A DNA stretch of 35,507 nucleotides, from positions 1 through 35,507 of the forward strand of contig JAFGKV010000155.1 of assembly GCA_016928395.1 (NCBI GenBank). Reading direction: 5' to 3'. Origin of the DNA: Candidatus Fermentibacterota bacterium (lineage in GTDB: Bacteria; JAFGKV01). This document shows, piece after piece, positions 9,038-32,834 of this stretch (within the stretch, counting starts at the first letter, position 1; each line of letters begins with the position of its first letter). The notes below the pieces were generated by a model. It saw only the letters and a program-made list of their open reading frames with translations, made no database searches and had not been told where the DNA came from. Both the position numbers and the translations under genes were made by a program.

Positions 9038-10192
9038 ATGGAAGAGCTAAAATCGGCGATGCACACATGGATCGAGATTGACGCGGAGTCACTCCGCCAC
9101 AACCTCGCCTCGTTTCGAGCACGGCTACCCATGCCAACCCGGCTCTGCCTCGTGGTCAAGGCCAATGCATACGGGCACGGCGTAGAGCCCATCGTCAGCT
9201 GCGCCCTGAAGTCGGGATTGGTGGATTGGTTTGCAGTGCATTCTCTGCCCGAGGCACGTCAAGTGGTGGCGCTGACCGAACTCCCTGTGCTCGTTCTCGG
9301 CTATGTACCGATCGCGGCGATAGACCAGGCGATCCACCCCCAGCTTCGCCTGACGGTATGGAATGCCGCCACGGTTCGCGCCTTGGCTGCCAAGGCTGAG
9401 GCGTGCGGCACAGTGGTCCCTGTGCACATCAAAGTCGAAACCGGCACCAATCGCCACGGCGTACTCCCTGGTGACGTGGTTGACTTCGCCCGGCTGATCA
9501 CGTCGTTGCCCGGCATCACCCTGGAAGGGCTATCTACCCACTACGCCAACATTGAGGATACGACCGACTACTCGTTCGCCGCCCGGCAGACAGAGGTCAT
9601 GGAGGAGGTCCGGCGCCAAGTTTCGCCCTTGGGTGGCGACCTGATCGTGCACACGGCCTGTTCCGCAGCGGCCCTGCTCTTCCCGGCCACCCATCACGAT
9701 CTCATTCGACTGGGCATCGCGGGCTATGGGCTCTGGCCGTCCAGGGAGACGCTGGTGAGTGCATCCTCACTTCCCGAATTCACGCCCCTGTGGCCGGTGC
9801 TGTCGTGGCGGGCGCGCCTCAGCCAGGTGAAGATTGTTGCGGCCGGGCAGTTCATCGGGTACGGCCTTACGTATCGCACGACGCGTACGACGGTGCTGGG
9901 GGTAGTGCCGGTGGGCTATGCCGAAGGCTACCCGCGAAACCTCTCGAACACCGGCCACGCCGTGGTCAGGGGAACTCGCGCACCGATTCGCGGCAGAGTC
10001 TGCATGAACATCATCATGGTGGATCTGACCGACATCCCCGGTGCGACCTTGGAGGATGTCGTCACGTTGATCGGTCGTGATGGCGACGAGGAAATCGGCG
10101 CGGCCACCCTCGCGGCCCAGAGCGGCACGATCCCCTATGAGATTGTCGCCCGGCTGAGCAGTTCCATTCCTCGATGTGTGACGGGAGCGTGA
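9038..10192 (+). CDS. alr: Alanine racemase
   Basis: PLP lysine motif VVKANAYGHG; VHIKVETG, VPVGYAEG, GRVCM, GTIPYEI. Confidence 0.97.
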   Translation: MEELKSAMHTWIEIDAESLRHNLASFRARLPMPTRLCLVVKANAYGHGVEPIVSCALKSGLVDWFAVHSLPEARQVVALTELPVLVLGYVPIAAIDQAIHPQLRLTVWNAATVRALAAKAEACGTVVPVHIKVETGTNRHGVLPGDVVDFARLITSLPGITLEGLSTHYANIEDTTDYSFAARQTEVMEEVRRQVSPLGGDLIVHTACSAAALLFPATHHDLIRLGIAGYGLWPSRETLVSASSLPEFTPLWPVLSWRARLSQVKIVAAGQFIGYGLTYRTTRTTVLGVVPVGYAEGYPRNLSNTGHAVVRGTRAPIRGRVCMNIIMVDLTDIPGATLEDVVTLIGRDGDEEIGAATLAAQSGTIPYEIVARLSSSIPRCVTGA

Positions 10193-22696: not shown

Positions 22697-24937
22697 CTAC
22701 CGCAGGAGCACACACGGCTGCTCCGCGGTATAGTCTGCGGTAGCCATGCGGCACACGTAGATCCCCGGAGAGACCCGCTGCCCCTTCATGCCGGTGCCGT
22801 CCCACAGAACCGAATGCGCGCCCTCGGCCGCGCTGCCCCGCACCAATGTCCGGACATGCCTGCCTGTAAGATCGTGGACCGTTACCGTCACCTCCGTTTC
22901 GCCGGCCAGCGAGTAGCGAATCCACACGGCGCCAAGAGAGGGATTCGGGTAGGATCCGTGAAGACGCGTGACGGCGGGAGCGGGGTCATCCTCCGCATCC
23001 ACCGGGGGCACCTCCACGGTGACTGTGTTGGACGGGCCGGATTCGCCACCTTGGTACACGGCGGTCACATGGTAGCCATACGCGCCGTCGGCAAGGCCGC
23101 GATCGTCGTACTCGGTCTCCACCACAGTCGAGGCGGTGATTCGCTGCTGATCGCGGTAGACATAATACCCCAGCAGCCCCCGGGACACACCCGCAGGCTC
23201 TCTCCATGCAAGGTGCACATCATGCCCGTACACCTCAGCATTCAGGCTCTCCGGGCAGGCAAGGCCGCCGGTGATCTCTATACTCAGCAGGTATGCGCCG
23301 ATGAGCTCTCCACCTGCGGGAGGGTCGGCGCAGGCCACTCTCAGGAAGTAGTATCCCTGCTGCGGCGTGGTGTAGCTGATCTCGGGCTGCAAATCGCCGT
23401 GGCTGTTGTCATCCGATGCCACGAATGCCTCGGGATCAACGTCCGACCCGTCCTCAAGGTGCGGCCCGTACAGACGAAACTCCGCGTCTAGTTCGCACCC
23501 GGGAATGGTCTCCGTGAACATGCGGAGCTCGACTCCGCCCTCAGAGTAGAAGCGGAGCCAATCCCTGTCTCCCTCGCGGCAGATGGTCTGCGCCAGGTCC
23601 ACGACCTCCAGCGCGAGCAGGATTGCCGCCGACGGTTCGTCGTTGCCGTCAGGACAGGTCAGATCACTGCCGATATCCAGGATGACTCCCTCGATGACCG
23701 TCAGGTTGTAAGGAAGACCCTGGGGAACGAGATACCACGCATCCGCATAGCCACCCCATCCGAAGTTCAAGTGATAGTACCCGTTGGTGTTATAGCCGTC
23801 GACCACGAGGTTGTGTCCCGCATTCCACTGAGGCGTCACCACGGCCAGGTGAGCGGGCAGCGCGTCGATCATGTTGAGGGCAAGATGCCGGTGGAGCAGG
23901 GGGGCTGCCGGGCCCGCCAGCTCGACCTCATCGTGGCCGAACCGCAGGTAGGCCTGATGCGCCTGGTCTACACTGAAGGTGCCGGAGCCCTGAGAGCTGT
24001 ACACTTGACGGGCGGCAATGCCGCACCCGAAGACGACGGCGGCCTTGTCGGTGTTCGTCATCGCCGTGGCGCTTTCGTAATGGGCGGTGAGCGTATCCAG
24101 GTAGACGTTCAGCTCAGGAAATGAAGGGAAGCCATGGGGTTCATGATCATCATCGATCCAGTACTGGCCCGCATAGTTGTGGAAGTAGTCATCCGCATCG
24201 GAAAAGCGGGTGTCGTTCAATGATCCGTGATAGGTGAGTATCTGGGCCATGGCCACGGCGGGGCAGCCCGCAAGACTCCTCTGGCCCGTGGTCGGATCGA
24301 CCGGGCAGAGGTTGTTGTACGGCGGATCCTGCGTCCACCTGGTGGCGACCCACCCGCCGGTGGAGGTGGTCCCCGGCGGAGGCCATTGATGAAACTCCCT
24401 GCCGAAGACTGAGGCCCCGGCCGCCCGAACACCCGCGTCCCACATCTGGCGGATCTCGGTGCGCGGGGAGTCCCGGAGCCCCTGGCCGTGCGCCAGTCGA
24501 AGCTGTAGATCACTTTCTAGCAGAGCCAACAGCGGATTTTCTCCCTCGACTGGGGCATGGAGGGGGCTGTGCAGGGAATACGCGATCACGGGCGGCAGGG
24601 CATCGTCTGCCGCGATGATGATGAAACCCAAAGGTCTGATCTCGAACCCGTAGGCCAGGGTGTTCCCGGCATCATCCCGCACCGTCTCCGTGGCTGTGGC
24701 TAAGACCCGGCCCCCGCCCGGGGCCAAATCGCCGAGCGCGGCCTCTGCCACCCGCGCGGCGGTGGCCTCATCCACGGGCGCAGCCCGGAGAAACCCTCCC
24801 GGCAGCATGGCCAGGGCCGCCACGGCGATCAGGCCGACCACAGGCCGAGCGTGCGAGAAGGCCGATAACGGCCCCACCCGCCGGCCGGAAGGGGCAAATG
24901 GGAATCCCGCGAACCCAAAGACCTTCGTCGTACTCAC
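22697..24937 (-). CDS. C10 (streptopain-like) cysteine peptidase with propeptide, PPC-like, FN3-like and FlgD-Ig/T9SS-type C-terminal domains
   Basis: WTQDPPYN..CP, AGCPAVAMAQ (Cys), GHNLVVDGY (His), HLNFGWGG; C-terminal YPNP...HDLTGRHVRTL...WDG...GIYVCR; AAGGAG before GTG 24937. Confidence 0.93.
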   Translation of the reverse strand: MSTTKVFGFAGFPFAPSGRRVGPLSAFSHARPVVGLIAVAALAMLPGGFLRAAPVDEATAARVAEAALGDLAPGGGRVLATATETVRDDAGNTLAYGFEIRPLGFIIIAADDALPPVIAYSLHSPLHAPVEGENPLLALLESDLQLRLAHGQGLRDSPRTEIRQMWDAGVRAAGASVFGREFHQWPPPGTTSTGGWVATRWTQDPPYNNLCPVDPTTGQRSLAGCPAVAMAQILTYHGSLNDTRFSDADDYFHNYAGQYWIDDDHEPHGFPSFPELNVYLDTLTAHYESATAMTNTDKAAVVFGCGIAARQVYSSQGSGTFSVDQAHQAYLRFGHDEVELAGPAAPLLHRHLALNMIDALPAHLAVVTPQWNAGHNLVVDGYNTNGYYHLNFGWGGYADAWYLVPQGLPYNLTVIEGVILDIGSDLTCPDGNDEPSAAILLALEVVDLAQTICREGDRDWLRFYSEGGVELRMFTETIPGCELDAEFRLYGPHLEDGSDVDPEAFVASDDNSHGDLQPEISYTTPQQGYYFLRVACADPPAGGELIGAYLLSIEITGGLACPESLNAEVYGHDVHLAWREPAGVSRGLLGYYVYRDQQRITASTVVETEYDDRGLADGAYGYHVTAVYQGGESGPSNTVTVEVPPVDAEDDPAPAVTRLHGSYPNPSLGAVWIRYSLAGETEVTVTVHDLTGRHVRTLVRGSAAEGAHSVLWDGTGMKGQRVSPGIYVCRMATADYTAEQPCVLLR

Positions 24938-25237
24938 ATCTGTCTCCTTCCCTGCTGCCGTGGCAACAACCCCGCGAGAACCGGGGGATCGGCCTTTCGT
25001 GCTCATGTCGCACAGGAAACTCACCGGCGCTGCGGCTCGCAACCTCCGGGTGCGCTGCGGTCTCTTGACGGCGCGGAGGATCCTCGACCAAGGAGGCCGG
25101 GCGGAGAGAACAAATGTCGTCGCCCCCTCGCCGATGCTCCCATACCTTTGGGACTATCGAACAAGGTGGAGTACGTTCACCGGCGCCTGCCAGGACGCCG
25201 CGCGCGCCCGGGACCCTCACCAGAAAGGAGTGCCGCC

Positions 25238-26917
25238 ATGAACTGGTCGCGCACCCCGCTTCTCTCGATAATGGCTCTCCTCGTGGTTCTCGGCGCCGCG
25301 GGCAATGCCGACATTCCGCAGGTGATCAGTTACCAGGGCAAGGTAACCGATACATCCGGGAACCCGGTGGCCAATGGCAGCTACAGTATGCGGTTCCGGA
25401 TCTACAACGCGGCGACAGGCGGGTCGCTGATGTGGGACAGCGGTGCCCAACCAGTGACGATCACCGGGGGCATCTTCAGTGTGCTCCTGGGAGAAAGCCC
25501 GCAGCCTGTCCTTACGGCCTCCTTCAGCTCCGATTACTGGCTACTGGTGACGGTCCAGGGGATTGACCAGAGCCCTCGGCAGCGAATGGCCTCGGTGGGC
25601 TACGCCTACATGGCCAGCGGCCTGGTGCCGGGCACCGAAGTCAGTGGAGCGGTGACCAGCGGAATCTGCGCCACTATCGCGGGCACCAACACGGCCACCA
25701 TCGGCATGGGTGTCTACGGTTCGGCAACCGCCACCACCGGCGCCACCTACGGGGTGTTCGGCCAAAGCTCTTCCTCCTCCGGCATTGGGGTCCAAGGCAC
25801 TGCTCCCTCCGCGACCGGGTCGACCTCCGGTGTTCTAGGCATTAGTTCCTCAAGCGGCGGTTATGGGGTCTGGGGAATCGCCGGTTCTACCACGGGCAAT
25901 GCCCGAGGGGTCTTCGGATATAGTGCCGCCAATTCCGGCCGGGGCGTCTACGGCTTGGCCACAAACGCGAGCGGCATGACCTACGGAGTCTACGGCGAGA
26001 GCGCCTCCACCAGCGGCACCGGAGTCTACGGTTTCGCCAACGCTACCACCGGCACCACCTACGGCGTGCATGGGAGAAGTGATGCCGTCTCCGGCAGGGG
26101 AGTCTACGGCTGGGTCAACTCGACCACAGGCACGAACTACGGGGTCTACGGGACGGTACTGTCTCCCTCCGGTTACGGCGGCTACTTCTCAGGCAGACTC
26201 GCGACCCTGGCAAACATCAACGGCGATGCGACTCCCGCAAACCATGTGGCCCTGATCCAGAACACCTCCTCGGGCACCAGCCCCGACGTGCTGGCCCTCA
26301 AGGTCGGCTACACGGGCAATCCCAGCTCTGCCGTCAACTACATCACCTTCTTCAAGGGCAATGATGCCGCTGTGGGCGCCATCGAGGGCAACGGAGCCGG
26401 CGGCGTGACGCTGCTGTCAGGCGGAGCCGACTTCGCTGAGTACCTGCCGCTCTTGTACGGTGAGAACCTGGAGGCCGGCGACGTGGTGGGGGTGTTCGAT
26501 GGAGGAGTCGCGAAGCGGACGGAGGGCGCCTCCGCGGTCATGGTAGTGAGCACCCGGCCCATCGTGGTGGGCAACAGCCCCAGAGAGGAAAAGTCATCGG
26601 CCCATGCCCGGGTCGCCTTCATCGGGCAGGTGGAGGTAAAGGTGCGCGGCCCGGTGACCGCGGGTGATCTGCTGATACCTTCGGGTTTAGGCGATGGGAT
26701 TGCCGTGGCACGCTCCCGCCAGGAGATCCGGGCCGCGCAGTTCGGCGCGGTGTTCGGCCAGGCGTGGGAGGGCACCGCGGACAACGGAGTGACTCGAGTT
26801 CGGGCCGCGGTGGGCCTGATGCTGCCCGACCCCACGGTGGCGCGTCTCGAATCGGAACTCCGGGCGACCATCGCTGACCTTCAGGCACGGCTGACCGCTC
26901 TGGAGCAAATGCGATAG
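25238..26917 (+). CDS. Secreted fibre-like protein 2: same N-terminal module, GVYG repeats, peptidase-G2/intramolecular-chaperone-like C-terminus and coiled coil
   Basis: IPQVISYQGKVTD; GADFAEYL, AGDVV, VVST.P.VVGN, VAFIGQVEVKV, GDLL; AAGGAG RBS. Confidence 0.82.
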   Translation: MNWSRTPLLSIMALLVVLGAAGNADIPQVISYQGKVTDTSGNPVANGSYSMRFRIYNAATGGSLMWDSGAQPVTITGGIFSVLLGESPQPVLTASFSSDYWLLVTVQGIDQSPRQRMASVGYAYMASGLVPGTEVSGAVTSGICATIAGTNTATIGMGVYGSATATTGATYGVFGQSSSSSGIGVQGTAPSATGSTSGVLGISSSSGGYGVWGIAGSTTGNARGVFGYSAANSGRGVYGLATNASGMTYGVYGESASTSGTGVYGFANATTGTTYGVHGRSDAVSGRGVYGWVNSTTGTNYGVYGTVLSPSGYGGYFSGRLATLANINGDATPANHVALIQNTSSGTSPDVLALKVGYTGNPSSAVNYITFFKGNDAAVGAIEGNGAGGVTLLSGGADFAEYLPLLYGENLEAGDVVGVFDGGVAKRTEGASAVMVVSTRPIVVGNSPREEKSSAHARVAFIGQVEVKVRGPVTAGDLLIPSGLGDGIAVARSRQEIRAAQFGAVFGQAWEGTADNGVTRVRAAVGLMLPDPTVARLESELRATIADLQARLTALEQMR

Positions 26918-28390: not shown

Positions 28391-28650
28391 GGCAAGGGAG
28401 CGTTGGGGCCCGACGAGTTGGTCAAGCGGATAGAGGCCACGGGTCTGCGCACCATCGTTGCGCACCAGACACTCATCCTCCCGCAACTCGGCGCGCCCGG
28501 CGTCGCCGCCCATGAGGTGAAGAACCGAACCGGGTTCAGGATGGTCTACCCCGTGCGCTCTGCGGACCTGCTTCGGTTCCTCGATGCAGACCTGCAGGCA
28601 GACTCATCCATGCGTCGTGTCTCGTTCACGTTGCATGAGCTCCTTGCCGT
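28391..28650 (+). pseudogene. hgcA: Internal fragment of an hgcA-like corrinoid protein gene
   Basis: GKGALGPDELVKRIEATGLRTIVAHQTLILPQLGAPGVAAHEVKNRTGFRMVY-PVRSADL..FL......SSMRRVSFTL; no NVWCA cap helix and no TM region. Confidence 0.8.
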
Positions 28651-28659
28651 GTGCCTGTG

Positions 28660-28849
28660 GTGAATCCCCGGGCCTGCAGCGTCCGGGCGCAGGAGAGACG
28701 GCTCTTCAGCGTGCTGTTGGTCAGGAAGCGCAGCGCCACGCCACGCCCTCGCAGCGCCTCCAGCGTCTGGATGGCGCCATCCGGACGCTGCTTTGGTACA
28801 CCAAGACACCGTCCACATCGAAGATCACGCCTCTGATCGGTCCCGCCAT
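28660..28849 (-). pseudogene. Frameshifted N-terminal fragment of a HAD-IIA hydrolase
   Basis: MAGPIRGVIFDVDGVLVYQ in one frame, PDGAIQTLEALRGRGVALRFLTNSTLKSR in another; GAGGTG RBS. Confidence 0.85.
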
Positions 28850-29063
28850 CTGCCCACCTCATCGTGGTGGTCTGCTACATTCGGAATCGGAGAGAGGTAC
28901 ACAGCACCAAGGCGTGATTCATCCCTCACCCATCCGTCCATCCGTCTCTTCCCCCCTGGAACCCGCCGTACACCCCCGGGTATTATCAAATGCGTCCTCC
29001 ACGCCCGGACACACGACCTCTGATGAGACGAGCCGGGCACGAAGCAACGCCAAACGTGGGAAG

Positions 29064-29089
29064 AGGCACCGTCTGTGCGGTGCCTTTTT
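29064..29089 (+). terminator. Intrinsic terminator-like hairpin 25 nt upstream of the small selenoprotein ORF
   Basis: AGGCACCG-TCTGTG-CGGTGCCT followed by TTTT. Confidence 0.65.
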
Positions 29090-29113
29090 CCTTGGCTTGG
29101 AGACACACACATC

Positions 29114-29290
29114 GTGATCACGAAGCGACTCATTGCCGCCGCGGTCGGCGCGGGGTTAGGCTGGGGATTCAGCTATCTGTCCCGCTGCTCCGGCGGGGTT
29201 TGAGCTCTCACCTCCAACCCCTGGTCAGGGGTTCTGATCGGCGCACTCATCGGATATATGGCGTTCGGCCCACGCCCGCCATCCGACTGA
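29114..29290 (+). CDS. Putative 58-aa membrane selenoprotein, DUF6132-like
   Basis: MITKRLIAAAVGAGLGWGFSYLSRCSGGV-U-ALTSNPWSGVLIGALIGYMAFGPRPPSD; in-frame TGA at 29201-29203; GGAG RBS at 29099-29102. Confidence 0.82.
29216..29233 (+). promoter_or_regulatory. Candidate bacterial SECIS element
   Basis: AACCCCU-GGUC-AGGGGUU, 7-bp perfect stem after a 12-nt spacer from UGA, loop starting with G. Confidence 0.72.
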
Positions 29291-29353
29291 GTTCCCCCAA
29301 TGCGATGGTAGTGCGCCCGCGGCGATTCACCGTCCAGCACCATCCTTGAGAGA

Positions 29354-29375
29354 GCTATTCTAATGTTAGAATAGC
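29354..29375. other. AT-rich palindrome GCTATTCTAA-TG-TTAGAATAGC
   Basis: 10-bp perfect arms; same core as 2897-2918. Confidence 0.75.
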
Positions 29376-29531
29376 CCTCTTCCTGCCATGTCTCCCGGAT
29401 TCAAGGTGCTCCGCCGAACCCATAGGGAGCTTTCCGCTTGCAGGACGACAGCGGAGGCAGTACTATGCAGTCCCCGTCGGCTCAGAGATTCACACTGAGC
29501 ACAACGCGGTCGGCAATGCCGGAGGTTGACG

Positions 29532-31595
29532 ATGCAGCGAAAGCGCCTCAATCGGTCCGACAGCGAGACAGTCGCCGGCGGCACCCAGTCAAGCCCTCCC
29601 TTGGCTGAAGACCTCAGCCTGGCGGCCTCGGACATCCAACACCAGGCACAGATGTACCGAACATTGGTGGAGAACATCAACGATGTCATGTTCTCCTTGG
29701 ACGGCGAAGGGCACATCACCTATGTCAGCCCCGCTATCGACCGTCTAGGAATGTTCACTGTGGCTGAGGCCATGGGCCAGCCCTTCGCACGGTTCATCCA
29801 CCCTGAGGATCTTCAGGGTCTCATGGCGAGTTTCCGACGCACAATTGAAGGCACCCTCGAACCCTACGAGTTCCGGATCATCATAAAGGATGGATCGATT
29901 CGCCATGTGCGCACGTCCAGCCGTCCCTTGTGGGAAGGGCGCAACCTTGTCGGACTCACCGGTCTCTTGACCGATATCACAGAGCAGAAGAAGATCGAAG
30001 AAGAGCTTCAACGTGCCACCGAGGAGCTGGAACGCCGGGTCGAGGAGCGCACCGCAGAACTGCGGGAAGCCAATGAGCGCCTCGTCCGCGAGATCGAAGA
30101 GCGGAGGCGCGCCGATACGACCCTGCGGGAGAGCGAGGACCGGTGGCGGAGGCTGGTGGAGCACAATCCTGCATGCCTTGCGGTTCACCGCGCCGGCAAA
30201 CTGGTGTACGCGAATCCGGCCGGTATCCGGCTGTTGCGCATACCTGATGCGGAGCAGGTCGCAGGAAAGCCGCTCCTGGACTTCGTTCACCCGGACTACC
30301 GGGAACTTGTCCTCCAACGCGTCCGCAGGATGATGGAGGAAGACGTTCCGGCCGAGCCGATGGAGGAGAAGTTCGTGAGGCCCAACGGGGAGGTCATCGA
30401 TGTGGAGGTGACTGCCATTCCCATTACCTATATGGGACAGCGGGCCATCATGACAGTAAGCTGGGACATCACGGAACGGAAGCGTGCGGAGGCGGCACTG
30501 CGGGCCAGCGAGGAGCGCTACCGTCAGTTCTTCGAGATTGATCTGGCCGCGGACTACATCTCGACTCCGGAGGGAATCCTCACCGCATGCAATCCCGCCT
30601 ATGTCCGGATGTTTGGCTTCTCTTCGTACGATGAGGCGATGAGCACCAATGTAGCCCATCTCTATCCATGCCCCGAACAGCGGGTTGAATTCCTGGACCT
30701 CGTCCAATCCCGGCGCACCCTGATGGATCACCGGATGGAACTTCGACGCCTTGACGGTTCGCCGCTCCACGTTGTCGCCAATGTCGCCGGTCGCTTCGAT
30801 GAGGCGGGAAACCTGATCCAGATTCAGGGCTATCTCTTCGATGAGACGCCACGAAAGCTCTTGGAACAACAGTTCCTCCACGCCCAGAAGATGGAAGCCG
30901 TCGGACAGCTCGCGGGCGGAGTGGCCCATGACTTCAACAACATGTTGGGAGTGGTACTGGGTATATCGGATCTGATACTGGAGAAGATGCGGCCGGAGGA
31001 TCCCCTTCTCCAGAAGATCGAGACCATCCGCAATGCCGCCCTACGGTCGGCCGAGGTTGCCCGGCAGCTGCTCGCCTTTGCCCGGAAGCAGACCATCGAA
31101 CCGCGGGTCATCAACCTGAATGAGGTGATCGCGTCGTTTCGTCACATTCTCGAACGGCTCATCGGCGATCGCATTACCTTGAAACTGCGCCTGGCACCGG
31201 ATCTCTGGGATCTCAAGATCGATCCGACCCAGATCGATCAGGTCTTGGCAAACCTGGCCACCAATGCCCGCGACGCCATCGAGGATGCTGGCGAGATCAC
31301 CGTGGAAACCGGGAATATCACGACGGAAGAGGAGTATTGCCGCACCCACATCAATGCACTGCCCGGTGATTTCGTTCAACTGGCCTTCTCTGACAGCGGC
31401 AATGGCATGGACCGCGAGACCATTGGGCGCGTATTCGAGCCGTTCTTCACGACGAAGCCTGTCGGACAGGGAACCGGTCTCGGTCTGTCCACCGTCTATG
31501 GCATCGTGACCCAGAATGGCGGCTTCATCGATGTTTCCTCCGAGCCCGGGCAGGGCACGACCATGGCCCTCTTCTTTCCCCGGTCTGGGAGCTGA
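29532..31595 (+). CDS. Multi-PAS sensor histidine kinase without a receiver domain
   Basis: Three PAS/PAC units; H-box [41 protein letters not shown]. Confidence 0.95.
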
Positions 31596-31808
31596 TCCAG
31601 GTTGACCACGGAGGGACGGGGGCGTCTCGCTCAGTACATCCACCTTCAATCCTTGACCTTCACCGAGGGAAACCCGGCAAAGTCCGGTGGGTGCTCGCCC
31701 CGTGGTCGGTGACCGTGGAGTCGCTGACCCTGGTTGAGAACATGGGTGCGTACGAGGCCCCGATTGAACCCAGAACCACAAACCCTGCTTCCTGAACAGT
31801 CGCGACCC

Positions 31809-32834
31809 GTGGAACGAACAACAGACTACGACTATCCGCTTCCCGAAGAGCTTGTCGCACAGTTCCCATCAGCAACGCGCGGGAATGACCGCCTCTTGGT
31901 TCTCCAGCGCGCAACGGGTGAGATCGCCCATCACCAGTTCGCTGAATTGCCGGACCTCCTGCATCCCAAAGACCTGCTGGTCATCAACGAATCGCGCGTT
32001 CTGAAGGCACGAATTCTCGGAGCCAAAACCACCGGAGGGAGTGTAGAACTGCTCTTGGTCCGGCGCCTTGAAGCGGGGTGGCTCACCATGGTGCAGGCAC
32101 GCCGCGGCGTACGGCCTGGCATGCGAGTTCAGCTGGGGTCGGGCCGGTATGGTGAGCTGGTCAGTCGCCACGACGAGGGCCTGTGGGAGGTACGATTCCA
32201 GGGATTTTCCTCCGACGATGCCGTGCCGGATGAGGCGGGAGTGGTGCCCCTGCCTCCCTACATCAGGCGATCGGCGCAGTCCATCGACGATACGCGCTAC
32301 CAAACCGTATTCGCCCGAGAACCGGGATCGGTGGCGGCGCCCACCGCCGGGCTGCATTTCACCCCCGAGATCTTCGAGCGGTTGGCCGCTCGCGGCATCG
32401 AAGTCGCGTCGATCACGCTCCATGTCGGCCCGGGAACGTTCCGCCCTGTCAGGACGGAGTTGCTGAGAGACCACCGCATCGATCCCGAGCTCTTCTCCAT
32501 CACCGAAGCTGCTGCCCGCGCCATCCGTGCCGCTACAGATGAGGCAAGGCGGGTGGTGGCGGTGGGCACCACCGTGACCCGCGCCCTGGAAACGGCAGCC
32601 CGGAGCCAATGTGGGTTTGCCCAACAGACCTCCTGGACCGACCTATTCATCCACCCGCCCTTCCGGTTCCACGTAGTACGCGCACTCCTCACCAACTTCC
32701 ATTTGCCCCGCTCCTCGCTCATTGCGCTGGTTGCCACCTTCGCGGGCCGGGAGCCCGTACTCGCCGCCTATGCGGAAGCGGTGAAGGAGCACTACCGCTT
32801 CTACTCCTACGGCGACGCGATGCTGATAGTGTAA
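31809..32834 (+). CDS. queA: S-adenosylmethionine:tRNA ribosyltransferase-isomerase
   Basis: DYDYPLPEELVAQ, PLPPYI, RYQTVFA, GSVAAPTAGLHF, LHVGPGTF, TNFHLP, YRFYSYGDAM. Confidence 0.98.
   Translation: MERTTDYDYPLPEELVAQFPSATRGNDRLLVLQRATGEIAHHQFAELPDLLHPKDLLVINESRVLKARILGAKTTGGSVELLLVRRLEAGWLTMVQARRGVRPGMRVQLGSGRYGELVSRHDEGLWEVRFQGFSSDDAVPDEAGVVPLPPYIRRSAQSIDDTRYQTVFAREPGSVAAPTAGLHFTPEIFERLAARGIEVASITLHVGPGTFRPVRTELLRDHRIDPELFSITEAAARAIRAATDEARRVVAVGTTVTRALETAARSQCGFAQQTSWTDLFIHPPFRFHVVRALLTNFHLPRSSLIALVATFAGREPVLAAYAEAVKEHYRFYSYGDAMLIV

Follow-up and report, generated by a model that had tools for sequence, protein, structure and literature searches.

A small DUF6132 gene of a Candidatus Fermentibacterota bacterium probably encodes a two-helix membrane selenoprotein

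The DNA analysed here, referred to as the window, is the whole of positions 1 to 35,507 (forward strand) of contig JAFGKV010000155.1 from a Candidatus Fermentibacterota bacterium (assembly GCA_016928395.1). At 29114–29290 it contains a short frame interrupted by an in-frame UGA, which we hold with high confidence, from sequence comparisons, to be a real selenocysteine (Sec)-encoding gene. It very probably codes for a 58-residue two-helix membrane protein of the DUF6132 family with Sec at the position of a cysteine conserved in its relatives. A selenoprotein had been proposed here in an earlier sequence-only reading, and each of its suggested checks that was run favoured that proposal. The features of the locus, with lengths in nucleotides (nt), base pairs (bp) or amino acids (aa), are as follows.

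29100–29103, forward strand: GGAG ribosome-binding site, read from the sequence, 10 nt ahead of the start codon
29114–29290, forward strand: 58-aa DUF6132-family coding sequence, with a GTG start (29114–29116), an in-frame UGA at codon 30 and a terminal TGA (29288–29290)
29117–29179, forward strand: helix 1, residues 2–22, glycine-rich and hydrophobic; limits from a low-confidence AlphaFold2 model and the hydrophobic sequence
29186–29188, forward strand: TGC coding for Cys25, the first residue of the C-x4-U pair, invariant in alignments A1 and A2 (described below)
29201–29203, forward strand: UGA predicted to be read as selenocysteine, residue 30, aligned with the invariant second Cys
29216–29233, forward strand: hairpin of the selenocysteine insertion sequence (SECIS) type, with a 7-bp stem and a GGUC loop (29223–29226), from folding and from comparison with the genome and the family
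29219–29266, forward strand: helix 2, residues 36–51, its bases overlapping the hairpin; low-confidence AlphaFold2 model
29062–29090, forward strand: stem followed by a U-run, terminator-like, given as context; from the sequence and RNAfold (-18.1 kcal/mol)

The GGAG, the GTG start, a hydrophobic stretch, RCSGGV, the TGA, ALTSNPW and a second hydrophobic stretch are all present, base for base, as the earlier reading had described them. The 29 codons from the GTG to the UGA are hydrophobic in translation and end with SYLSRCSGGV; downstream of the UGA the frame continues through ALTSNPW and SGVLIGALIGYMAF to the terminal TGA at 29288–29290, so that the residues after U begin A-L-T-S-N-P-W-S-G-V and end A-F-G-P-R-P-P-S-D. 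Translation of the proposed frame with table 11 yields just a 42-aa fragment (29075–29203), and an ordinary gene caller would therefore miss the 58-aa protein, which bears out the claim that the gene is absent from the track of open reading frames (ORFs). With a codon model trained on long ORFs of the window genome (coding windows mean 5.26, standard deviation 3.5; wrong frames -12.9), the proposed frame scores best of the six on both sides of the UGA, at 4.51 upstream and 1.09 downstream. The start and frame of 29114–29290 are backed by both alignments. A start at GTG 29075 was rejected, as it would cross the terminator-like stem and the homologues begin level with 29114. The AlphaFold2 model was used for the helix limits only.

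When U is read as C, as the earlier reading had suggested, the protein is a DUF6132 (PF19628) member, its 33.1 bits exceeding the Pfam cut-off of 23.2 (E = 4.4e-8). It is matched over residues 6–49, with the UGA inside this span, and a six-frame search of the genome with PF19628 gives 27.5 bits at the locus. For alignment A1 (23 sequences) the window protein was joined by 22 relatives that a six-frame search of whole genomes had yielded, and the only invariant columns are G12, G16, C25 and C30. Column C30 is that of the UGA, as expected from the proposal that the UGA sits at the second Cys, and holds Cys in 20 of the 23 rows and TGA in three. The Cys forms of the family are 50–90 aa long and have two hydrophobic, glycine-rich helices joined by the motif G-C-x-[ST]-G-x-C-P-[LI]-T-S-N-P-[WY], in agreement with the motif C-x-x-G-x-C-P-[LI]-T-S-N-P between two transmembrane helices named in the earlier reading. 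The window protein fits the family layout C-x(3,4)-C...[ST]-x-N-P, with the first Cys and T-S-N-P-W present and Sec at the second Cys. It shares with the Cys forms G12, G16, C25, the two helices and the loop motif, but has Sec for the second Cys and Ala for the Pro that usually follows.

The family is large. A profile search of 1.84 billion cluster representatives (50% identity) found 747 relatives at E <= 0.001; both cysteines are present in all 18 of the representatives inspected, which include only Cys forms, and among the matches listed of 120 aa or less the Cys pair is found in 146 of 148, with x4 spacing in 117 and x3 spacing in 29 (C-x3-C Cys forms include P0005 and P0006). The closest relative of the window protein, G340, is 49–51% identical and has U-A-L-T-S-N-P-W in common with it. 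Alignment A2 contains nine rows, the window gene and eight TGA-form copies from the phylum of G020, and its profile scores 71.2 bits at the window locus, a partly circular figure in that the window gene is one of the nine rows. The N-terminal helix of the window protein bears G-L-G-W...S-Y, a signature common to the TGA-form subfamily of the G020 phylum.

Other searches with the protein gave no functional name. No NCBIfam model matches the window protein or its eight closest relatives, the match to TrgA (tellurite resistance) being weak (E = 0.21; 11.7 bits against a cut-off of 40), and the Pfam scan additionally gave weak Gly-zipper matches. A word-index protein search with the read-through protein found no match, the query being short and Sec forms not being called as proteins; in the ESM Atlas the Cys-form representative P0005 found DUF6132 clusters only, with scores of 0.89 or less and no functional name.

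The window genome (G000; 4.79 Mb in 343 contigs, 94% complete, 62% GC) has the machinery for Sec insertion. Genes for selA (527 bits), selB (342 bits) and two for selD (395 bits, and 370 bits with one in-frame TGA) score above the curated cut-offs, and a tRNA-Sec is found at 76.8 bits and called by ARAGORN as tRNA-SeC with anticodon TCA; the components that the sequence-only reading had said should be looked for are thus all present, and a genome devoid of them, which would have told against it, is not what was found. A genome-wide reassignment of TGA was considered and rejected: TGA is the commonest stop and ends 944 of the 1678 open frames of at least 400 codons, so that any recoding is local and the genetic code is not reassigned. 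We note that one of the selD genes (C199:54349–55278, minus strand; L011) has no in-frame TGA and lies within a 783-aa open frame, and is probably part of a fusion protein.

A genome scan for TGA codons that have coding signal before and after them and precede a hairpin brought up three further genes with an in-frame UGA. They are given here with the window gene, together with the hairpin of each and the distance from the UGA to its loop.

AhpC/Prx gene, contig C260: PF00578 at 123 bits, one TGA; 8-bp stem, GGUC loop, +17
Formate-dehydrogenase-alpha-like gene, contig C340: one TGA, partial TIGR01553 match below the full-length cut-off; 7-bp stem, GGUCU loop, +18
SelD gene, contig C22: one TGA; 6-bp stem, GGUCC loop, +32
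Window gene: in-frame UGA at 29201; 7-bp stem, GGUC loop, +19

The window hairpin fits, by stem, loop and distance, the SECIS type of the UGA genes for Prx, the FdhA-like protein and SelD. A similar 8-bp hairpin with a GGUC loop is present on the plus strand of contig C121, at +16 from a TGA near 10133; the frame there is unlike a protein, and this could be a hidden selenoprotein gene in another reading or a chance occurrence.

Folding confirmed the perfect hairpin that had been noticed 12 nt past the UGA. It is AACCCCU-GGUC-AGGGGUU at 29216–29233, with a perfect 7-bp stem, a 4-nt loop and an energy of -9.3 kcal/mol, and the GGUC loop starts 19 nt after the UGA. The published model of the bacterial SECIS (bSECIS) has a loop of 3–9 nt, a stem of 4–16 bp and a G in the first two loop positions (PMC13188914, section 5), together with a spacing of 16–37 nt between UGA and loop and a minimum free energy of -7.5 kcal/mol or lower (PMC13188914, section 5). 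The window hairpin falls within all four ranges (4-nt GGUC loop, 7 bp, +19, -9.3 kcal/mol), in agreement with the proposed SECIS-like placement just 3' of the UGA with a G in the loop. Arithmetic from counts in the genome puts the chance of any 7-bp tetraloop hairpin at about 4% per 28-nt window. In 9.59 million strand-bases the genome has 68 GGUC-looped hairpins with at least 7 bp of stem, and therefore the chance of one in the 28-nt window after a given TGA is about 2e-4. The fdhF SECIS of E. coli has a short upper stem and a GGUC-containing loop about 11–12 nt after the UGA. The window stem differs from it in sequence and, being a perfect 7-bp stem, has no bulged U. The E. coli formate dehydrogenase elements are the best characterised (PMC13188914, section 5).

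TGA and TGY alternate in the second-Cys column across many genomes, as the earlier reading had suggested they might. TGA is found there in 18 further genes, so that it is not unique to this assembly, and homologues do carry Cys at the column. In the G020 phylum the family is present in seven of 13 genomes and all eight copies are TGA forms, each with TAA or TAG as its true stop. In a domain-wide sample of 401 genomes the A2 profile matched 34, with TGA in the column at 10 of 35 places; a further TGA form, in G258, was added by the Pfam model, and 11 of the 35 family-bearing genomes of the sample have a TGA form, with G309 left out (a sub-threshold match piece inside a 761-aa frame). Across the G258 phylum, 32 of 79 genomes match at 34 places, with TGA in two (G258 and G436, of the same taxonomic family, the other three genomes of which carry Cys); five further places list TAA, and in L063, the sole one inspected, the TAA is the gene's own stop. 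A degenerate DNA pattern for U-A-L-T-S-N-P-W, run over 185,579 species, gave 45 matches, two of which are family members (in a Calditrichota metagenome-assembled genome and in the record behind G340); the remaining 43 look like chance and are close to the number expected.

The TGA forms fall into several types: G-L-G-W...G-C-x3-U of the G020 phylum, to which the window C-x4-U protein is nearest; a thioredoxin-fused K-C-A-G-G-A-U; Y-Y-Y-Y-I-G-C-x4-U; and a type in which the first Cys is missing but a Cys is present two or four residues past U. In G405, contig C73 has two tandem TGA-form paralogues (371–508 and 656–814; L051 and L056), each with its own hairpin.

Thirteen of 18 TGA forms, against one of 53 Cys forms, have a hairpin whose stem is at least 6 bp long and whose 3–5-nt loop starts 15–22 nt after the codon (Fisher 1.9e-9). 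Among genes of at least 55% GC it is found in 10 of 12 TGA forms and none of 21 Cys forms; related genes in this comparison are not independent, and the p-values are overstated. All 15 of the TGA-form hairpins with a stem of at least 5 bp have a G in the loop. When 15 TGA forms are aligned in a fixed pairing register, 74% of cells pair, compared with 24–50% for slid registers, with the window gene, G359 and G436, which use a neighbouring register because of their four-base loops, counted as mismatches. Five of the seven pairs change on both sides, and a covariation score as high as that observed comes up in two of 500 shuffles. One Cys form, L039 (G126:C8:896600–896716, minus strand), retains a GGUC-looped hairpin of 6 bp where a SECIS would lie, in a genome with selA, and may be a recent switch from Sec to Cys.

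The TGA forms are likewise associated with the Sec trait, with selA over the cut-off in all 16 of the genomes tested that have a TGA form and in 11 of the 27 that have Cys forms only (Fisher 5.6e-5). In G120 (L117) the selA gene at C83:7374–8537 holds two TGA codons and one TAG internally and the TGA-form DUF6132 gene is without a hairpin; the Sec trait there may be decaying, or the assembly may be poor.

Several observations weigh against the selenoprotein interpretation of 29114–29290. The phylum of the window is represented by three genomes in a collection of 199,900 species, all three with selA, and profile searches did not find the gene in the other two. A same-genus genome has both flanking genes, on two contigs, the histidine kinase at 72% identity and the left neighbour at 83%, but the stretch between these flanks is not conserved and has no relative of the protein. 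Vertical conservation cannot be shown given this absence from phylum relatives, and the gene therefore looks like either a gain in the window genome or a loss in the others. The downstream codon score of 1.09 is at about the 10th percentile of coding windows, low yet within the coding range, and AlphaFold2 with A1 places helices at residues 2–22 and 36–51 at low confidence (mean predicted local distance difference test 64.1). The 40-nt stretch with the hairpin folds no better than its own shuffles (z = 0.06), its energy being unexceptional; Rfam gives no match at gathering score in the whole window, SECIS families included, and none of its nine matches at E up to 10 within 28450–29550 is to a SECIS family. 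No hairpin is seen at this place in three of the 18 TGA forms (G270, G120 and G305). The terminator-like stem and U-run at 29062–29090 ends 10 nt before the GGAG and clouds the promoter.

Some of these points could be accommodated by a dead gene or an assembly error, in which a Cys-type DUF6132 gene has undergone a TGY-to-TGA change and yields a 29-residue stub or nothing: the absence from the two other phylum genomes and from between the same-genus flanks, the low codon score past the TGA, and perhaps G120, which may itself be such a case given the in-frame stops in its selA and the want of a hairpin. There is also no independent contig over the TGA. Among contigs from four sequencing runs none bridges 29201–29203, which says nothing either way on the TGA or on expression; one DNA run, possibly the source sample, contains the whole stretch, its contigs having left out 28836–29700, and the three others gave short pieces only. 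We nonetheless regard a dead gene or an error as very improbable. Past the TGA the frame is open with the motif and the second helix intact, a hairpin of the genome's own SECIS type stands at the right distance, and the same TGA recurs in other genomes, including every copy in one phylum, and only where selA is present. Still less credible is the absence of any such gene, with the DUF6132 likeness a coincidence and one of two overlapping frames real, either 28990–29349 (plus strand, 119 aa), which is the longest table 11 ORF across the place, or 29173–29343 (minus strand, 56 aa). Neither frame matches a Pfam family, whereas the DUF6132 match exceeds the curated cut-off, and the 119-aa frame has no homologue in a search of 5.8 billion proteins, has negative codon scores (-3.1 and -3.2) and would cross the terminator-like hairpin. 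A selenium-free reading of the UGA, whether by suppression or through a near-cognate tRNA for Trp or Cys, would give an ordinary Cys- or Trp-containing DUF6132 protein, and low-level UGA read-through is known in bacteria; this too has very little probability, as it leaves unexplained why a hairpin at a set position is confined to TGA forms, why it resembles those of the genome's other UGA genes, and why TGA forms are found in selA-positive genomes only.

Clues to the function of the selenoprotein come mostly from its relatives. L040 matches both PF19628 and PF00085, with DUF6132 fused at the C-terminus to thioredoxin, and such DUF6132-thioredoxin fusions occur with Sec (L040/L084 in G258, L121 in G436) and with Cys (L074 in G437, L080 in G438). 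By eye, six Cys-form fusions (L071, L074, L078, L080, L083 and L085) carry CPPC or CGPC, with CPPC kept in those of G437 and G438, and one Cys form (L079, in G439) is fused to a Tpx-like peroxiredoxin. Thioredoxin is also the commonest neighbour at 16 TGA-form loci (six of 46 ORFs, a tally that leaves out the window's own four neighbour ORFs), followed by OsmC (three), rubrerythrin (two) and redoxin (one). Within 700 nt of 34 Cys-form genes (85 ORFs) there are eight thioredoxins, five each of pyridine nucleotide-disulfide oxidoreductase, rhodanese and methyltransferase, three proteins of the metallo-beta-lactamase fold, and two each of rubrerythrin and OsmC. Judged by these predicted domains, neighbours and fusions are a thiol/sulfur redox or oxidative-stress setting. 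In 146 Cys-form representatives Lys and Arg make up 0.21 and 0.27 per residue of the two tails and 0.017 of the loop, and by the positive-inside rule both ends are therefore probably cytoplasmic, with the Cys/Sec loop facing outward or within the membrane.

It is from this redox setting that a Cys25–Sec30 selenenylsulfide, serviced by thioredoxin-type proteins, is proposed. A ribosome would start at GTG 29114 and, at the UGA at 29201, would accept Sec-tRNA(Sec) from SelB, recruited by the in-frame hairpin at 29216–29233 with its GGUC loop; Sec would be inserted and translation would run on to the TGA at 29288. The predicted product is a 58-residue glycine-rich two-helix membrane hairpin with Cys25-x4-Sec30 and then A-L-T-S-N-P-W in its short loop. 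A selenenylsulfide may form reversibly between Cys25 and Sec30 where the helical hairpin turns, at the membrane surface, and this membrane-bound redox site would trade electrons with thioredoxin-type partners in oxidative or sulfur stress, the selenium presumably making it more reactive than the dithiol of the Cys forms. Within this explanation the gene and the recoding of its UGA are the likely part, and we are almost as sure of them as of the gene by itself; a thioredoxin-linked redox function is where we lean, by a modest degree. The UGA, its hairpin, the Sec machinery and the Sec/Cys alternation rest on comparison between sequences, and the chemistry is deduced from the fusions, the neighbours and the predicted topology. 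An outward-facing loop could not directly touch a cytoplasmic thioredoxin domain, and how electrons would be exchanged is not obvious. Further points that sit poorly with such a function are that the thioredoxin CxxC is lost in the Sec-form fusions (G258 and G436), that G436 has Ser for the first Cys, leaving Sec as the sole Cys/Sec residue of the motif next to a thioredoxin domain without both Cys, that the neighbours of the window's closest subfamily vary and are not conserved (sirohaem synthase occurs twice), and that the window gene has no thioredoxin or other redox gene among its own neighbours.

The same gene could instead make a selenoprotein that handles soft metals or metalloids (species of Hg, Cu, As, Te or Se), its Cys/Sec loop binding them or handing them on much as the two-helix mercury transporter MerF and the Cys pairs of MerT do; the points just listed make room for this reading. 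The predicted build, with two glycine-zipper-like membrane helices in a small hairpin that pairs a thiol with a selenol, would suit this role, as would the methyltransferase domains beside Cys forms (5 of 85 ORFs), the weak TrgA match and the retention of Sec alone in G436, where the fused thioredoxin domain has lost both Cys. We consider it unlikely. The 25 neighbour families that occur most often include no mer, ars or cop family in either of the two tallies, the TrgA score falls well short of its cut-off, and a Pfam scan up to E = 1 gives the window protein no match to MerT or MerF. Thioredoxin, disulfide reductase-type flavoproteins, OsmC, rubrerythrin and peroxiredoxin are the partners seen most, and the Cys-form fusions go to thioredoxins with an intact CPPC or CGPC. 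Whether the pair serves redox or metal binding is a matter of inference, in which fusions and neighbours speak for redox.

Upstream of the small gene is a 209-aa ORF of unknown function on the minus strand, and in the roughly 500 nt before the gene (28550–29060) no frame has a coding signal and there is no Rfam match. The stem and U-run at 29062–29090 may belong to a leader, act as an attenuator or close an unannotated transcript from upstream; a consensus promoter and terminator scan lists nothing here, this stem and U-run included. Downstream, a PAS histidine kinase is at 29526–31595, and the GC-rich DNA between it and the small gene has an AT-rich inverted repeat (29354–29375; 9 bp, perfect, 4-nt loop) that could bind a protein or serve as a terminator lacking a U-run. 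Further out in the window are a 781-aa peptidase C10 with an inhibitor I69 prodomain and weak matches to type IX secretion sorting tails (22697–25042, minus strand), an adjoining 589-aa ORF with a strong coding signal and no Pfam family (25148–26917, plus strand), and QueA (31734–32834, plus strand).

The decoding mechanism is the standard bacterial one, and DUF6132 has previously been only a domain of unknown function. Table 1 of a 2026 review lists 119 prokaryotic selenoprotein families and subfamilies (PMC13188914); PF19628 or a fitting entry is not among them, and the accession and motifs are absent from the text of that paper. A full-text literature search for 'DUF6132' returned one unrelated paper and no function for the family, and no description of DUF6132 was found in literature searches on new bacterial selenoprotein families and small membrane selenoproteins. 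It is unmentioned in the passages searched of deep-Sep, BSepDB and the Haft preprint, the supplementary lists of which might hold it. We tentatively suggest, at a little under even chances, that DUF6132 is an unrecognised and widespread selenoprotein family, with a membrane form of about 60 residues and two helices, a Sec loop that is probably non-cytoplasmic, Sec in about one-third of its carriers, several seemingly independent Sec types, and a single selenol replacing the dithiol relay in fusions. This last element follows from the Sec-bearing fusions of G258 and G436, where the use of Sec goes with the loss of CxxC, suggesting that a single membrane selenol can replace a dithiol relay.

If so, a new Sec/Cys family with 747 cluster representatives would enlarge the prokaryotic selenoproteome, and the Sec residue would mark the catalytic position of a domain of unknown function, pointing to the Cys/Sec pair of the loop and to a thioredoxin partner. 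Small genes split by a Sec-encoding UGA escape gene callers, and DUF6132 offers a test case for Sec-aware annotation of tiny membrane proteins. A genome-specific SECIS consensus, with its GGUC loop, is also gained for a phylum with three genomes only.

Among known systems, the works-like comparison is with DsbD-beta/CcdA and DsbB, in which Pro-flanked cysteines at the membrane are tied to thioredoxin-type proteins. These have four to eight helices, and the Pfam scan found no sequence relation between them and the two-helix window protein; an electron relay across the membrane of their kind is speculation for DUF6132. The catalogued Sec-for-Cys proteins (Prx, Trx, Grx, AhpD-like CxxU and SelW-like CxxU) likewise alternate between Sec and Cys with an adjacent partner Cys (PMC13188914), and likewise have an in-ORF bSECIS 3' of the UGA with a G in the loop and a spacing of 16–37 nt (PMC13188914). 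In contrast to a soluble thioredoxin-fold enzyme, DUF6132 is a minimal membrane hairpin, and it differs from the CxxU selenoproteins in its C-x4-U or C-x3-U spacing. Membrane selenoproteins already listed include a putative mercuric transport protein (PF02411), the SO_0444 Cu/Zn efflux transporter, YeeE/YedE and the ABC permease SaoP (PMC13188914); they too have Sec in or beside membrane helices, but belong to unrelated and much larger families, none of which was matched here. DUF6132 appears to be one more Sec/Cys-alternating family, common, and unusual in being a minimal membrane hairpin.

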